A stretch of 64,000 nt of DNA, from IMG/VR virus record IMGVR_UViG_3300002835_000013; one strand, 5' to 3'. The notes below the pieces were generated by a model, which saw only the letters and a program-made list of their open reading frames with translations, had not been told where the DNA came from and did not search any database. How positions within the stretch are numbered: position 1 is the first letter of the stretch; every line of letters begins with the position of its first letter. This stretch comes from a virus. Below are positions 3,433-12,712 of this stretch, one piece after another. The position numbers and the translations under genes were made by a program.

Positions 3433-4235
3433 CGTAGATTACCACTCAATGCTGCGACCGCTGGTAGATCACCTTGGAAGCCATATGTACCGACGTGGGT
3501 TGTCTTCATCCATGGACATAGCCAAACATGAAAGCCAATCTCACGGGCATACTGACAGAACATATAATCTTCCGAAAGATAACGATGTGACTTTGGATCA
3601 ATAACAGTATCAAAGAAAGCATGAATGTATCTTGAACCATCAAAGTTAGCCTGACCAACGTGATCTGGCTTATAATGAAGGTGTGGATATTCTTCCTGAA
3701 ACTTATCAAAAACTTCACGCTTGACCATCATGAAGCCTGTTCCAATCTCCATAACCTCAACAGGTTCCGTTACTCTAAAAGATGTTGTACCAGGAACCGG
3801 ATTGAAAACGAAATCGCCAGTAATCTGATCTAGATCACCTGGATTGAACTTCTCGTTATCAACATTACGCTTTACAGCATTCACAATGTTTGACCAGTTG
3901 ATTGACTTCTTTGGATATGGACCACCGATAATGTCACGGTCTAATGCCAATAGAGCAAGAATGTCCTGTGGATTATACTGAATATCGGAGTCGATGAATA
4001 GTAGGTGAGTGCAGCCTGATCTTAGAAACTCGTCAACCAGATAGTTTCTAGCACGGGTGATTAGCGACTCATTAAAGATAAAAGAAAAGCGGCACTCGAT
4101 GCCATACTGAATACATGTGGCTTGAAGGTCTAAACAAGCCTTAGCATAAAGTCCAAAACACTGACCGCCGTAACATGGGGTGGCAACGAATATTCTTTTC
4201 TTTCTTAGGTCTTCACTTGAAATTTTGATTTCCAT
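3429..4235 (-). CDS. GT-A fold glycosyltransferase-like protein
   Basis: ATPCYGG, ESLITRARN, LFIDSDI (DxD), GTGFM, LSEDY motifs; start set at 4235 after GGAG SD. Confidence 0.75.
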   Translation of the reverse strand: MEIKISSEDLRKKRIFVATPCYGGQCFGLYAKACLDLQATCIQYGIECRFSFIFNESLITRARNYLVDEFLRSGCTHLLFIDSDIQYNPQDILALLALDRDIIGGPYPKKSINWSNIVNAVKRNVDNEKFNPGDLDQITGDFVFNPVPGTTSFRVTEPVEVMEIGTGFMMVKREVFDKFQEEYPHLHYKPDHVGQANFDGSRYIHAFFDTVIDPKSHRYLSEDYMFCQYAREIGFHVWLCPWMKTTHVGTYGFQGDLPAVAALSGNLR

Positions 4236-4306
4236 ATTGTTCTCCATACACGAATAGCGCAGGAGCAACTAAGCCCCTACGCTATTATATAGTTTAGTTT
4301 TTCGTA

Positions 4307-4528
4307 TTAGCCAGCAAAGCGATAGAAAGCAGTGCGGCGACCGTCTACGTCACGATAGTTTGTATAGATTGTGTAATACTCACGAAGATCATAAACACGC
4401 TTGGAAACATTCTCACGAGGAACACGGGCTAGTGAAGCAACCTTATCGGCAGTAACACCAGCACCAGTGTTATACTTGCGAAGAACGTTCTCAATCTTCT
4501 CAATCTGAGACTTACGATTAGTAGCCAT
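4307..4528 (-). CDS. Small winged-helix DNA-binding protein
   Basis: GVTADKVASLARVPRENVSKRVYDLR is HTH-like, followed by a beta-wing; SD GGAGA before ATG 4528. Confidence 0.65.
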   Translation of the reverse strand: MATNRKSQIEKIENVLRKYNTGAGVTADKVASLARVPRENVSKRVYDLREYYTIYTNYRDVDGRRTAFYRFAG

Positions 4529-4553
4529 TATATATTTCTCCATTCAAAGTTTT

Positions 4554-4620
4554 TGATGCTGGTGGTCGTGAAAGGAAAGGACCCGTGTATAACCACCAGC
4601 ATCATTTTATTATACACGGG
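4554..4620 (-). ncRNA. Putative H-type pseudoknot RNA (leader or sRNA) with anti-RBS loop
   Basis: Interleaved perfect inverted repeats 4554-4566/4592-4604 (13 bp) and 4582-4592/4610-4620 (11 bp); TATAAT at 4626-4631 (-) just upstream. Confidence 0.6.
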
Positions 4621-4685
4621 CATTCATTATAGAGTCACAGCCATGCGACTCCGTTTTTGTCTATCTGTAAACCGTATTCATCTAT

Positions 4686-5909
4686 TCAGAAAGCAACTTC
4701 CTCACCAGTGATGGTTGCTTCCGGTTGCGGAACAGGTTGCGGATCAACGGTTTCATCGACTTTCTTATAGAGTTCCATAAACGCATTCTTAGTATCCACA
4801 TCAAAGCGGTTGAGACAAAGTTCTATAGCCTTCATACGGTTCTGATTAAAGATGGCAAATGCCTCGCAGATATGAACCAGACGGCGAGTGGAGATGATTT
4901 CAGACAAGGCACCTTCATAGAAGGACTTGCGAATAACATCTGCCCAAGTCACCAACTTCTCAACAAATTCGGCACTCTCGATACCAGAAGCACCAAGAAC
5001 ATTGTTGAGGATTTTGGTTTCAATCTTAGTCGAAGGATATTCCTGTTCCATCGTGATAGAGAAACGCTCAAGGAACGCTTCGTTCATAACGTTGGTGCCG
5101 ATAAAGCGACCATCGTCGGAACCCTTACCCTTGGTATTCGCCGTAGCAATAACGTTGAAACCATTTTCAGGATGGACAAGACGGTTAATCTTTTTGAGAT
5201 AAACAGACTTGCCTTCGAGAACAGGCTGGAGACACATTAGCTTATTGGAGCCAAGGTCAACTTCGTCCAGAAGAAGAATAGCACCACGCTGCATGGCAAC
5301 AATAACAGGACCATCCTGCCAGACAGTAGCACCATCGACAAGGCGGAAACCACCAATAAGATCATCTTCGTCGGTTTCAATAGTAATATTGACACGGACG
5401 CACTCACGCTTTTCAACGGCACAAACCTGTTCGACCATCATCGTCTTACCGTTACCAGAAAGACCAGTAACGTAAGCAGGATAAAACTTCTTAGACTTGA
5501 TGATAGAACGAACATCGCTAAAGTTACCGAACGGCACATAGCCATTCGCCTTTTCAGGCACTAGCGAAACCTCGGCAGAAGCAGAAGTGGAAGCCGCAGC
5601 CATAGCAATCGTAGAGGAAGGAGCCATAGCAACAACGGACTCAACAACAGGAATATCAGACTGGATCTTAGCAGTCTTACGAGGAGCAACCGTCTTTTCA
5701 GCAACGGGAGCAAGATTTACACCGTGATCGGTCAAAGCATAAACACCACGACCAACACGGAGAGAGGGATCTTTCACAAGCCAAGCAGGATAAATACCAT
5801 ACTTTTCGTGAATGGTCAAAATTTGCTGACGGGTGATTTCACGAATGGCACCAAACTCAAAGCGGACCTTGTCCAGAAACACAGAACGGTTATCGGTAGA
5901 TTTAGCCAT
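4686..5909 (-). CDS. CobS-like / MoxR-type AAA+ ATPase
   Basis: GLSGNGKT, LLLDEVD, TANTKGKGSDDGRFIGTNV.NEAFLERF, ISTRRL; typical T4-like phage family. Confidence 0.9.
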   Translation of the reverse strand: MAKSTDNRSVFLDKVRFEFGAIREITRQQILTIHEKYGIYPAWLVKDPSLRVGRGVYALTDHGVNLAPVAEKTVAPRKTAKIQSDIPVVESVVAMAPSSTIAMAAASTSASAEVSLVPEKANGYVPFGNFSDVRSIIKSKKFYPAYVTGLSGNGKTMMVEQVCAVEKRECVRVNITIETDEDDLIGGFRLVDGATVWQDGPVIVAMQRGAILLLDEVDLGSNKLMCLQPVLEGKSVYLKKINRLVHPENGFNVIATANTKGKGSDDGRFIGTNVMNEAFLERFSITMEQEYPSTKIETKILNNVLGASGIESAEFVEKLVTWADVIRKSFYEGALSEIISTRRLVHICEAFAIFNQNRMKAIELCLNRFDVDTKNAFMELYKKVDETVDPQPVPQPEATITGEEVAF

Positions 5910-5946
5910 ATCGAAACTTTCCTTTCACGATTTTCGATTATGATGT

Positions 5947-5975
5947 ATTATACCACAAGGAAGGGATCTTGTCAA
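5947..5975 (-). promoter_or_regulatory. Sigma70-type early promoter for the cobS-like gene
   Basis: TTGACA-N17-TATAAT perfect consensus. Confidence 0.85.
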
Positions 5976-5996
5976 CCCCTTCCTAAGTCTTTGATT

Positions 5997-8216
5997 TTAC
6001 GCAATCTTCTTGGACTGTTGCGTAACGTTATTGATGAACTGACGCAGAAGGACACGATTGATGGACTTTTTAGCGGCAAACTTGGAGAATGCCTTGGCCA
6101 TGGATTTCGTGGACTTTGTATTGTCGATTTCCAATTCGTTCTCCGTTTCACGAAGAACATTGGAATTGATCACATAATATTCATCATAACCTTCATTCTT
6201 GACTGGATAGAACTTGTTTTCTTTCCAGAACTTGACAACCTTTTCGACGTAGTGATAGTTGGTACCATCATTCATACCAAAGCGAGACAAGAACCGTTTG
6301 ATGTTGGAATCAGACAGAAAGAAACCAATCAGATTACAATCAGTCTGATCCTTTAGCATCTTTAGAAACTTGTTAGTGGTGTTTGCACCATCACCCCAAC
6401 CGTAAAGGCTGATATCGTAAGTCTTACCAGAAGACTTATCAACATACTTATACATAACCTTACGACCAGGTTGAACACCGGTACAATTTTTGATACCACC
6501 AAGACCGTTTGACTCACCATCGGTAAGGAAAATAGTGTTGACGATTTCCAACTTATGTTTGGCACGGAAGTCGTTGATAATCTTAGGAGCAAGAATAACT
6601 GCCTCATTGAGAGGCGTGCCACCGAGACCATCAGTATAAAGACGACTATGACCACCAACCATAGAAAGAAACGTCATAGCCTCGTTTAGTTCCGCAAGAG
6701 TCATCTTGGAAGATAGAAACTGGCGAAGCACCACGTTACCAAGACCAATAACATTCTCTTTACCAAGATAAGAGAATGGATTTTCAGCACCAGAATCCTT
6801 GAAGGCATACACCTCGAACGGCACTTGGATCTGCTTACAAAACAGAACCAGAGTAAACAACTGCCGAAGAGTATACTTCAGGTTTCTATCCATAGAACCA
6901 GACCAATCAAGAAACATGATAAAGCCATGGTTCTTGCCTTCCGGCACTGTAGTCAACCGACGGAAGATATCATCATTGAACTTGTAAGAGTGGAGTTTAT
7001 TAGTGTCAATAACACCAGTCTTAGCCACAGAAATGCGAGAATACATTTCCGCAGCCTTGCGCTGCTCAAACTCTTTTACAAGAAACGAAATGCTATCTTT
7101 TTCTTTTTGACGCCACTGGTTGAAAGCGGCACGACCTTCTTCAAAGGTCTTCTTAGAAAAGTGTCCGTAGTAACCAGCGCCAACCAGACGACGCCAATCA
7201 CTAAGAACTCGCTTATAATCGTGAATAGCCTTGTCCCAGTTTACATCAGGAAGGGTGACATAGACATAATCGGTATTATCGTCTTTGACTAGTTCCTGAA
7301 CTTTTTCTTCCCAAACACGGTCAGTATAAGACTCGGGAGCCTTGATTTCATCGGAACTGGCACCAGCACCATCAGAGGTATTACCAGAACCATTATCACC
7401 GATATCACCTTCGCCCTTTACAGCGTCGGATTTACCTTCACCTTCGTCACCTTCACCGTCTTCGGCATCTTCTTCGGAATCATCACCATCAAGGTCACCA
7501 TCCCAATCGTCAGCATCATCGGAAAAATCGTCAATGTCATAGGAGTCTCCTTTGTCTCCATCTTCGCTTTCGCCAAGACCGAGGTCGTTATGAATATCGT
7601 TTTCAATCTTATCTTTACAAAAACGATACACCTTCTCGGCAACTTCCACAACCTCTGCGAAAGTTTCAATATTTTCAATCTGCTTTAGAAGCACTCGCTC
7701 TTCGGGAGTAAACTCAATATTGAGATTGATGTTACCACCCTTGAAGTAGACATTGACACGGTCGATAAAGTTCATAGAATTGATATCACGACCCTTCGTG
7801 CCGAAGAAGTCACGGTCAATAAGTTCTTTATAACCAGCGAGATAGTTACGACGAAGACCAGGATAACGGCGCTTCTGGCGCTTGTCAATACGGACATCTT
7901 CGATAACATTAACGAAGCCCTGGACGGTGCGCTTTAGCTGATCGCTAACTTCGGAACCGAATACACGATTAGCAATATCCTCATATGCCTTTTTATACTC
8001 TTCGCCTGAAGGCGTATCAATAGCATGAGCCGTTTCGTGACCGATAAGCAAATGCTCAAGATCCTGCGAAATATCATGCCACATAGGCAGCATAAGAACA
8101 CGGTTCTTGAGGTCGAACATAGCGGTTTTGATACCGCTCTTATGCTGAACAGTAATGTTCTCGGTCGCCAACAGCTTGGCAAGAAGCGAGTTGGAATTTA
8201 CGGTCATTGCGGTCAT
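5997..8216 (-). CDS. CobT-like protein: N-terminal HExxH metallopeptidase-like domain, acidic linker, VWA domain
   Basis: HETAH, NVIEDVRI, D/E-rich linker, MIDAS DWSGS, GGTPL, LTDGE. Confidence 0.85.
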   Translation of the reverse strand: MTAMTVNSNSLLAKLLATENITVQHKSGIKTAMFDLKNRVLMLPMWHDISQDLEHLLIGHETAHAIDTPSGEEYKKAYEDIANRVFGSEVSDQLKRTVQGFVNVIEDVRIDKRQKRRYPGLRRNYLAGYKELIDRDFFGTKGRDINSMNFIDRVNVYFKGGNINLNIEFTPEERVLLKQIENIETFAEVVEVAEKVYRFCKDKIENDIHNDLGLGESEDGDKGDSYDIDDFSDDADDWDGDLDGDDSEEDAEDGEGDEGEGKSDAVKGEGDIGDNGSGNTSDGAGASSDEIKAPESYTDRVWEEKVQELVKDDNTDYVYVTLPDVNWDKAIHDYKRVLSDWRRLVGAGYYGHFSKKTFEEGRAAFNQWRQKEKDSISFLVKEFEQRKAAEMYSRISVAKTGVIDTNKLHSYKFNDDIFRRLTTVPEGKNHGFIMFLDWSGSMDRNLKYTLRQLFTLVLFCKQIQVPFEVYAFKDSGAENPFSYLGKENVIGLGNVVLRQFLSSKMTLAELNEAMTFLSMVGGHSRLYTDGLGGTPLNEAVILAPKIINDFRAKHKLEIVNTIFLTDGESNGLGGIKNCTGVQPGRKVMYKYVDKSSGKTYDISLYGWGDGANTTNKFLKMLKDQTDCNLIGFFLSDSNIKRFLSRFGMNDGTNYHYVEKVVKFWKENKFYPVKNEGYDEYYVINSNVLRETENELEIDNTKSTKSMAKAFSKFAAKKSINRVLLRQFINNVTQQSKKIA

Positions 8217-8240
8217 AGTGTTCCTTTCACGATTTTCACA

Positions 8241-8269
8241 AGTATAGCAAAACCGGTCGCATTTGTCAA
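8241..8269 (-). promoter_or_regulatory. Sigma70-type early promoter for the cobT-like gene
   Basis: TTGACA-N17-TATACT. Confidence 0.8.
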
Positions 8270-8428
8270 GTCATAACAAAAACAACGACTTATGAGGTCA
8301 TTGTCTTGATGAGTTTGTAAACAACGTATGCCAGAAATGGAAATAATGCCAAGTGGATGATATGTTCCCATTGTGATTGTAAACTGTAGAAATCAAAATA
8401 ATGTGCGGTAGGCGTAAATGTCACGATG

Positions 8429-9331
8429 TTATCCTCTAAAGTTAGTTTCCAGTCTCATACCGTAGTTATTGATTCCTTTCGGTATCACAACATCTTTCTT
8501 GTAAATGAGTTGGTTCTTTTTGAACGGTGAATAATCCACATAATGATGCCAGCGTCCATACTTGAACACCATTCTAGCAACATCTGGGTGTAAGTCAACC
8601 AACATTTTTGATTTGTTCCAAGTGCCTTCTGGATTCAGTTGTCCGTCACGCCACTTTTCCTTATCAAGATCGCCTTCGACATGATAAAACTCTTGTGTAT
8701 TACCACCTTTGACAGTTTGTGTGGCACATTTACCTTGCATGAAGGCATTGAACTGAATGGTGCAATCACCATCTTTCAATACACGAAGGCAAATATCTGT
8801 ATCTTCGTTATAACGACCACGCCAACGATGCTCACAATCGTTGCGGATCAATAGAGTTGAATAGATACGGGTGTTAGCAACGAAAGGAGGATACTTGCTA
8901 TTAGGCGCAATAAAGAACCGATATTGAAAGCCAGAGATAGGAACATTCTCATAACGATCAACAAACTCTTCCGCAGCACGAAAGATGGCACCAGACTCCA
9001 CACGAATACGCTTGTTTCTATGAAGACGATAAAAGTCTGAAATGTTATCGTCTAGAACCCAATGTGCCTTGGCACCAATAGAGATAGAATGATCCCATGC
9101 CCAGTTTCTGGCACGACCAGGACCATCACCATGATTAGAGAAAGGAGCCACAAGGAGAGTAACGTAAGGACGAATGCCAAAATGATCTAAGGCATATTCG
9201 TAGTTTTCTTCGTCTTGTGGCTCAATCACAATAGAATGTGGCACCTTCATTCTCGCCAGAGACTTGGAGGTGATCATACTTTCATGTCTGCCTTTAGAAA
9301 CAATATAAACAGGATAAATTGGATTAGTCAT
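8429..9331 (-). CDS. TAGT-family (TET/JBP-associated) glycosyltransferase
   Basis: YIVSKGR, VIEPQD...Y, ARNWAWDHS, WVLDDNI, RYNEDTD, KGGNT motifs recognised as this family. Confidence 0.7.
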   Translation of the reverse strand: MTNPIYPVYIVSKGRHESMITSKSLARMKVPHSIVIEPQDEENYEYALDHFGIRPYVTLLVAPFSNHGDGPGRARNWAWDHSISIGAKAHWVLDDNISDFYRLHRNKRIRVESGAIFRAAEEFVDRYENVPISGFQYRFFIAPNSKYPPFVANTRIYSTLLIRNDCEHRWRGRYNEDTDICLRVLKDGDCTIQFNAFMQGKCATQTVKGGNTQEFYHVEGDLDKEKWRDGQLNPEGTWNKSKMLVDLHPDVARMVFKYGRWHHYVDYSPFKKNQLIYKKDVVIPKGINNYGMRLETNFRG

Positions 9332-9332
9332 T

Positions 9333-10022
9333 TTACTTCACACAATAAACAATGTTCACCCAGGCAGCCTTAGTGTCGGCTCTAGCAGTCACAGAACTAA
9401 AGTGTCCTCGGAGCAAATCTAAAATCTCATTATACTTTTCATGTGTATCAATATCATTCAAATGAGCATGATGAAATTCCATAATGAACTCTCTTACACC
9501 ATCAAAGGTCTTTAGTGCCTTCAAGCATTCATACTCACCACCTTCAATATCCATCTTGATAATGGTTGGACGGTAATCTTCTATCACTTTGTTGATGTTG
9601 ATACAAGGTACCTGTGTCACATCTCTACCTCGCTTATGAATTAGAGAATGAGCGCCCTTGTTCTTTTTGACATTGATAGAAAACTCTCTTGTAGGATCAT
9701 CATTACCAATAACAGCTAGATTATACAACTCATAACGAGATTTGTCAAATTCATTCAGTTCCATGTTGCGACAAGCTAGTTCATAGTTCTCCGCATCGGC
9801 TTCATATGAATAAACTTTCTTAGCACCTTTCTTGAGAGCAAAGGCAGTGAACATACCAATATTCAAACCAAAATCTAGAATAACATCGTCACTGGTAATC
9901 TTCAATTTGTTGTATTCGCCAGAGAAAACTTCCTTGACAACAAAAGCATCGGACGTGCCTTTTCTAACAAATGCTTTTACATCTTTAAAGGTAACTTCTT
10001 CAATAATATCTTCACTACTCAT
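9333..10022 (-). CDS. FkbM-family SAM methyltransferase
   Basis: ILDFGLNIGMF, YSYEAD..NY, IKMDIEGGE, MEFH. Confidence 0.85.
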   Translation of the reverse strand: MSSEDIIEEVTFKDVKAFVRKGTSDAFVVKEVFSGEYNKLKITSDDVILDFGLNIGMFTAFALKKGAKKVYSYEADAENYELACRNMELNEFDKSRYELYNLAVIGNDDPTREFSINVKKNKGAHSLIHKRGRDVTQVPCININKVIEDYRPTIIKMDIEGGEYECLKALKTFDGVREFIMEFHHAHLNDIDTHEKYNEILDLLRGHFSSVTARADTKAAWVNIVYCVK

Positions 10023-12687: not shown

Positions 12688-12712
12688 ATCTATTCCTTTC
12701 AGCTAGACATAC

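Follow-up and report, generated by a model that had tools for sequence, protein, structure and literature searches.

What is the perfectly paired segment that lies immediately 5' of a small gene for a predicted winged-helix protein in an uncultured phage, and could the loop that it carries act on the mRNAs of other early genes? The DNA analysed, referred to here as the window, is a 64,000-nt stretch of the IMG/VR virus record IMGVR_UViG_3300002835_000013. Its genes include gp44, gp45, gp46, a dNMP kinase and cobS-like and cobT-like genes, and it is part of a T4-like phage. No close DNA relative of the window was found in INPHARED, where tblastn with the protein of the small gene also gave no match; judged by gp44, the nearest cultured phages are cyanophages at about 58% identity. 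The window sequence is present in DNA sequencing runs from lakes. A first-pass annotation, made from the sequence alone, had described the segment as a pseudoknotted RNA, begun just after a TATAAT, whose free loop is antisense to the ribosome binding sites (RBSs) of neighbouring early genes.

The gene that follows the segment occupies 4307–4528 on the minus strand, and the segment is its leader. Its true start is the ATG at 4528–4526, which is conserved in relatives, has GGAG 9 nt upstream and yields a protein of 73 aa. The start proposed by the ORF finder, the ATG at 4543 (78 aa), is almost certainly wrong: it belongs to the Shine-Dalgarno (SD) region and is missing in some relatives, for example in those of group 3 (described below). 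The AF2 model of the 73-aa protein (mean pLDDT 88) has the topology H-H-H-b-b of a minimal winged helix, and Foldseek aligned it at TM 0.6–0.73 with winged-helix domains of Stf76, TFE and ArsR/MarR proteins; searches of Pfam and PHROG with the protein gave no match. The earlier assignment of the gene as wHTH agrees with this predicted fold of three helices and a beta-hairpin, at the level of fold only.

Two perfect helices, S1 and S2, are interleaved in the element (all coordinates on the minus strand, where the higher number is 5'). From 5' to 3' it consists of the S1 5' arm (4610–4620), the linker L1 of sequence UAAAA (4605–4609; 5–7 nt in relatives), the S2 5' arm (4592–4604), the S1 3' arm (4582–4592), which lies inside the loop closed by S2, the 15-nt pyrimidine-rich loop L3 (4567–4581) with an invariant core UUCCUUUCA at 4577–4569, and the S2 3' arm (4554–4566), which pairs with 4604–4592. 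S1 is a perfect inverted repeat of 11 bp and S2 comprises 13 bp; both are 100% paired and have base 4592 in common, exactly as the first-pass annotation had recorded. An A/U-rich linker, the SD GGAG (4541–4538) and the ATG complete the leader (4526–4553). The distance from the end of S2 to the SD is 12 nt, close to the 10 nt or so given earlier.

The arms follow each other in the order 5'a-5'b-3'a-3'b within 4620–4554, which is the topology of an H-type pseudoknot. In that geometry the 5-nt L1 would span a helix of 13 bp and the 15-nt L3 one of 11 bp; as hairpins, S1 would close a loop of 17 nt and S2 one of 25 nt. The minimum-energy nested fold of 4540–4640 (minus strand) is S2, at −28.8 kcal/mol and z = −4.0, and within the 67-nt element S1 alone was predicted at −13.7 kcal/mol and S2 alone at −20.9 kcal/mol. 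Rfam covariance models run over 3500–9500 at E <= 10, that of C4 included, gave no match on the element, in line with the earlier remark that it resembles no described one.

A search with the 73-aa protein retrieved relatives at 52 IMG/VR loci and 34 metagenome loci. All of them have the same architecture 5' of the winged-helix gene, whatever the upstream gene may be, and the element belongs to a clade of uncultured freshwater T4-like phages that is widespread in lakes. The pyrimidine-rich loop is present in group 1, which includes the window. Group 2 has an S1 of 16 bp, an S2 of 6 bp and an unrelated loop of 14 nt. Group 3 is built like group 2 and has in addition a tRNA-like insert of ~75 nt ending in CCA, placed between the S1 3' arm and the S2 3' arm and enclosed by S2 (L034:56-230, L039:2835-3015, L019:2841-3018 and L314:2320-2500). 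Two of the inserts score above the Rfam tRNA threshold (33.3 and 32.5 bits vs 29), and ARAGORN calls others 'tRNA-???'. Because their anticodon loops are of 6 or 8 nt and rich in UCC/CCC, the inserts are not ordinary decoders.

The interleaved topology of the window is found in groups 2 and 3 as well, and in the distant relative L330 (51% protein identity) it is formed by helices of unrelated sequence, 11 and 7 bp long (L330:750-873), both of them wholly downstream of the −10 of that locus. Judged from predicted pairing, what recurs upstream of this gene family is the topology and not the sequence. Within the family, the same place in the leader can be occupied by a seed loop, by a short loop of unrelated sequence or by a module that resembles a tRNA. 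The most distant winged-helix homologue in the set (41% identity; L052:2765-2928) lies directly 3' of two tRNA-Arg genes, a hint that the gene family may ancestrally have been co-transcribed with tRNAs.

Stem covariation, which the first-pass annotation had proposed as a check, proved strong for S2 and was found for S1 too. Among 24 distinct group-1 sequences, 5 of the 12 pairs of S2 show double-sided changes and 99.3% of the cells are paired; in a control with the register slid by 1–3 columns only 28–46% were. At least 7 different stem sequences occur among about 85 relatives, and in the metagenome loci L322 and L323 most of the S2 stem has been replaced once again with the loop unchanged. 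S1 is paired in 100% of the cells in group 1, where a CG pair has once become UA and A->G changes have twice produced G.U. Its 16 bp in groups 2 and 3 carry compensatory changes at five or more positions, together with some C.A/A.C mismatches. That S1 is instead an operator for the winged-helix protein is unlikely, as its half-sites differ completely between groups and the recognition helix barely changes, which argues for base pairing. Together S1 and S2 amount to about 22–24 bp in groups 1–3, what one helix loses being gained by the other (11 + 13 vs 16 + 6–8), and this is compatible with a coaxial stack that a dsRNA-binding factor might measure.

Several other ways of reading the strand were set aside. 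Wobble pairs do not assign it, the G.U cases of the minus strand being balanced by C.A/A.C cases. Open reading frames on the plus strand (one of 52 aa at 4553–4711, another of 15 codons starting with GTG) are broken by 1-nt indels in relatives; no plus-strand promoter is present at the element, and L005 and L023 do not keep the plus-strand terminator that S2 and a U run after it would make.

The position of the promoter decides which of the two helices an RNA contains. A TATAAT at 4626–4631, about 5 nt before S1, is present as the first-pass annotation had stated, and its reading as the promoter was not borne out: this outer box is without a −35 and is kept only in the closest kin of the window, most relatives having CATAAC there. 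The conserved −10 is the inner TATAAT (4609–4614), identified by promoter scan and in relatives, which belongs to a sigma70-type promoter of the winged-helix gene itself. In the window it is accompanied by a degraded −35-like GTGACT (4638–4633) at a spacer of 18 nt, and a perfect TTGACA-17-TATAAT stands in the inner register in groups 2 and 3 and in about half of group 1. We infer a transcription start at about 4603–4601, on the first bases of the S2 5' arm, which would place that arm at or within 1–3 nt of the 5' end of the promoter-born RNA. Most of the conserved −10 box falls within the S1 5' arm, so RNA from the inner promoter carries S2 only, as a 5'-terminal hairpin with its 25-nt loop, and the pseudoknot needs an RNA started upstream. 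The proposal of an H-type pseudoknot or alternative hairpins accordingly stands as regards the order of the arms and fails for promoter-born RNA, from which the S1 5' arm is missing.

In several relatives the −35 is absent or TGTAAT replaces the −10, and therefore the winged-helix gene must be read from upstream there; S1 is nonetheless kept. The terminator scan called no terminator between the cobS promoter and the element, so that with read-through S1 and S2 would come to lie on one RNA. This arrangement predicts two isoforms: in the short one S2 stands alone and the loop is free, and in the long one S1 and S2 would form the pseudoknot or its alternatives. Folding gave a probability of 0.53 that the stretch from SD to AUG is unpaired in the short isoform vs 0.49 in the long one. 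The element was earlier taken for a free-standing RNA; it is the 5' UTR of the winged-helix gene, and since no terminator-like hairpin with a U-run follows it, a discrete sRNA would need processing. Contigs from three possible RNA runs cover only parts of the cobS of related phages, outside the element, and are uninformative on its expression. Just before the outer TATAAT a small hairpin (4653–4632) occurs in the closest kin of the window only; in L047 it shows the compensatory change GAGTC/GACTC -> GGGTC/GACCC.

As to its anatomy, the element is very probably a new conserved structured leader in which an internal promoter is combined with a covarying scaffold and an invariant loop. What the loop does is a separate matter, and the evidence on it comes from the early leaders. 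The core UUCCUUUCA is the exact complement of UGAAAGGAA, and the first-pass annotation had listed three early RBSs on the minus strand that match the loop. All three matches were found again: one of 14 nt, exact, with the cobS-like leader and RBS (5917–5930; promoter 5975–5947), for which the 15-nt loop 4581–4567 and one stem base are used, one of 12 nt with the cobT-like leader and RBS (8221–8232; promoter 8269–8241), and one of 9 nt, limited to the core, with the RBS of a gene for a 106-aa protein (12693–12701; promoter 12741–12713). The promoter scan also upheld the statement that the targets lie directly behind sigma70-type early promoters, which have the form TTGACA-17-TATAAT/TATACT/TATGAT. 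An accessible seed complementary to the translation start region of its targets, as expected of an antisense RNA, is thus found in the element.

The 14-nt match exceeds chance, as had been estimated, and a shuffle test answers the caveat on SD content that the first-pass annotation had itself raised. When the 16-nt loop was shuffled 5000 times with its composition kept, 11 shuffles reached a 14-nt complement anywhere on the minus strand and none did so within 64 crude translation start regions. Predicted duplexes of the loop with the leaders have energies of −19.6 (cobS), −15.8 (cobT) and −12.8 kcal/mol (106-aa gene), which 0–2 of 500 shuffled loops matched (shuffled mean near −7). Duplexes of the loop with the gp45 leader and with the start region of its own gene were not distinct in energy from those of shuffled loops.

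In the window the leader motif UGAAAGGAA occurs five times: at three early SDs, in the loop (on the other strand) and once inside a gene. In five records of relatives, which include four near-complete genomes of about 165 kb, 4–8 copies were counted vs 1–2 of the reversed control word, and most coding-strand copies serve as SD for the gene that comes first after a sigma70-type promoter. The genome-wide scan suggested in the first-pass annotation thus yielded 3–6 such promoter-proximal leaders per relative genome (six in G001, four in G003). They form an early cassette in which a sigma70 promoter is followed after 11–19 nt by UGAAAGGAA and, 4–7 nt further on, by ATG (5927–5919, 8229–8221 and 12701–12693 in the window; also in G001-G005). 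The cobS and cobT leaders have 17 identical nt in common. The early leaders are short, and their folds leave UGAAAGGAA unpaired; the cobS leader presents it in the loop of a weak hairpin, the two arms of which change in concert from relative to relative.

The loop itself is nearly constant across all S2 variants, and its conserved extent is that of the leader motif. The exceptions are single-base indels or changes in the first five bases, a C->U in L014 and CAC->CAU in one lineage. Across IMG/VR the loop motif was found in a hairpin setting only upstream of the winged-helix gene, and scans with the loop 14-mer returned mostly chance matches or ordinary RBSs. The result is a conserved covarying RNA motif, absent from Rfam, with a seed complementary to a stereotyped early RBS in lake phages.

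Conservation of both partners could be followed further in related genomes, where the loop and the cobS leader are complementary over 9–15 nt in 21 of 22 distinct genomes. Complementarity averages 11.41 nt for loop and leader of the same genome vs 11.40 nt across genomes, so it gives no evidence of co-evolution, and no compensatory change links the loop with the leaders among the 22 distinct genomes. The leader motif is, moreover, equally conserved in relatives of groups 2 and 3, which are without the loop, so something else, such as SD strength or RegA, must account for its conservation. RegA (PF01818, E about 1e-45) is encoded in all four near-complete relatives (G001:C1:43873-44235, with counterparts in G002-G004). 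A search of the four relatives for RegB (PF10715) gave no match and is uninformative, as its search control was equally silent. As regards the expectation that loop and leaders are conserved together, each of them is conserved, they show no co-variation, and the motif persists where the loop is absent.

On balance we tentatively favour a candidate anti-RBS seed directed at UGAAAGGAA early leaders as the best single explanation of the loop, at somewhat less than even confidence. In this respect the first-pass interpretation retains a conserved structured RNA, a covarying S2 and a core complementary to a class of RBSs, and it lacks the co-evolution of loop and leaders. S2 holds the pyrimidine-rich loop single-stranded, and the loop would serve as an anti-RBS seed that pairs in trans with short, unstructured early leaders or, alternatively, in cis on a read-through RNA begun at the cobS promoter. 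Pairing of seed and leader would lower the translation or stability of the early leaders, an effect that would be the RNA counterpart of the class-specific shut-off of early mRNAs by T4 RegB. S1 can form only in RNA started upstream, by read-through or from the outer −10. The fuller proposal is of a leader-embedded anti-Shine-Dalgarno switch on the early mRNAs of a lytic T4-like phage, gated by promoter choice: RNA from the inner promoter would expose a free seed, and read-through RNA would fold S1 and S2 into a coaxial helix of ~23 bp that masks the seed or offers a site to a dsRNA nuclease. In this complete form we regard it as doubtful. Against any anti-RBS function stands the fact that about 7 nt of the loop core are plain SD/anti-SD sequence, since a loop that looks like the 16S tail would match any such RBS. 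The proposed targets, moreover, are transcribed from early promoters of the kind that drives the element itself, which leaves no obvious timing.

The same features can be accommodated by a leader that acts in cis only, a possibility that deserves weight even though we consider it on the unlikely side. S2 would then be a helix at the 5' end that serves stabilisation or processing, perhaps a remnant of a tRNA leader-trailer helix, and the loop would bind a protein or ribosomal protein S1 or serve as a ribosome standby site for the winged-helix gene; the match to early RBSs would follow from the likeness of the loop to the 16S tail. Such a reading fits the position of the S2 start, which in every group is near +1 of the conserved promoter, the CCA-ended tRNA-like insert enclosed by S2 in the slot of group 3, the short and unrelated loop of group 2, the position of the distant gene relative L052 after two tRNA genes and the lack of co-variation between loop and leaders. 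It leaves unexplained why 9–14 nucleotides are invariant, which neither a stabiliser nor a standby site needs, and it makes a coincidence of the fact that the invariant stretch is the exact complement of an invariant leader motif. If the loop acted in cis by pairing with the start region of its own gene (4547–4536), a hairpin-loop pseudoknot would throttle translation in the manner of rpsO or gene 32. By eye, 9 of 10 positions there can pair with the loop in the window, and in the distant relative L330 the loop of a 5' hairpin and a site immediately before the SD are complements of 7 nt. Autoregulation of this kind is nevertheless distinctly improbable: the duplex, at −8.8 kcal/mol, was reached by 83 of 500 shuffled loops, the UGAA of the site is absent in L025, L041, L048, L322 and L323 with the loop unchanged there, and the predicted accessibility of the SD is similar in the short and long isoforms.

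The conserved word might alternatively function in DNA. TGAAAGGAA would be a double-stranded box just 3' of early promoters, in either orientation, at which a phage protein, perhaps the winged-helix product, represses early promoters and, in group 1, its own promoter. In the window, each of the four cases has the box 11–31 nt downstream of a −10, the neighbouring gene codes for a fold that is typical of DNA binders, and gene and leader box co-occur in all groups. The distance to the −10 varies over that range of 11 to 31 nt, however, and in the leaders the box is inseparable from SD function; a DNA site, moreover, has no need of a strongly covarying RNA stem, and the box sits exactly in the loop of one, so this reading is improbable. 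A terminator or attenuator, in which S1 and the U/C-rich tract end cobS transcripts and S2 is the alternative fold, is highly improbable. The tract after S1 has 8 U in 12 nt and hairpins overlap other promoters in this phage, among them the −35 of the cobS promoter, yet the terminator scan makes no call at the element, the loop of S1 measures 17 nt, the tract is interrupted by C, and S1 is kept in groups 2 and 3 without the U tract. As S1 and S2 share only one base, S2 cannot displace S1, and relatives without the −35 must read through the element to express the gene.

Among known systems, the C4 antisense RNA of phages P1 and P7 comes closest; its loops occlude an RBS, and RNase P cuts it from a longer transcript (PMC5320573). 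Both are phage RNAs located upstream in the transcription unit of a protein gene, with a stem-loop scaffold and loops complementary to an RBS, and group 3 relatives of the element carry their tRNA-like CCA-ended insert at the same place. C4 serves temperate-phage immunity and acts on one downstream operon, whereas the element has a single loop, belongs to a lytic T4-like phage and would be directed at 3–6 dispersed early leaders. The trans-acting or leader-embedded phage antisense RNAs known to us all come from temperate phages (P1/P7 C4, P22 sar and lambda OOP).

Systems of T4 resemble the element in single features. RegB inactivates early mRNAs at their SD (PMC3014915); RegB and the proposed seed would both act on a class of early mRNAs through a sequence common to SD regions, and as RegB is a protein nuclease that cuts GGAG, in contrast to an RNA loop directed at UGAAAGGAA, the two would be analogous in function only. 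In T4 gene e, soc and I-TevI the DNA for the 5' strand of an RNA structure contains an internal promoter, and long and short transcripts fold differently (PMC3014915); in T4 the 3' strand hides the RBS. The −10 in the S1 5' arm of the element is a parallel to gene e, unlike the S1 3' arm (4592–4582), which is 40 nt from the SD and does not mask it. The small pseudoknot of gene 32, which the first-pass annotation had cited as a precedent, nucleates cooperative binding of an ssDNA-binding protein. It too belongs to a T4-type phage and places interleaved helices 5' of an A/U-rich start region (PMC3014915). The element differs from it in having helices of 11 and 13 bp and a conserved promoter that removes one arm, and the comparison does not carry over to the product, which is here a predicted winged helix and not an ssDNA-binding protein. 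Stabiliser hairpins at mRNA 5' ends, for example that of the ompA leader, are stable stems a few nt from the end and need no conserved loop sequence. S2 is likewise a stable stem within a few nt of the putative 5' end, and it differs from the ompA type in its conserved loop.

To our knowledge, post-transcriptional early shut-off of the T4 type occurs only by way of proteins (RegB and RegA). If the anti-RBS seed were confirmed, the element would represent an RNA-based route to early-gene shut-off in T4-type phages, and it would also be a compact, portable part, namely a hairpin-displayed anti-RBS matched to a family of leaders.

A further hairpin was noted at the cobS promoter (5984–5958 in the window), where a stem of 8 bp carries the −35 TTGACA in its loop. 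Its arms change together in relatives, for example in L006, L023, L030 and L041, and hairpins that overlap promoters appear to be a habit of this phage group.
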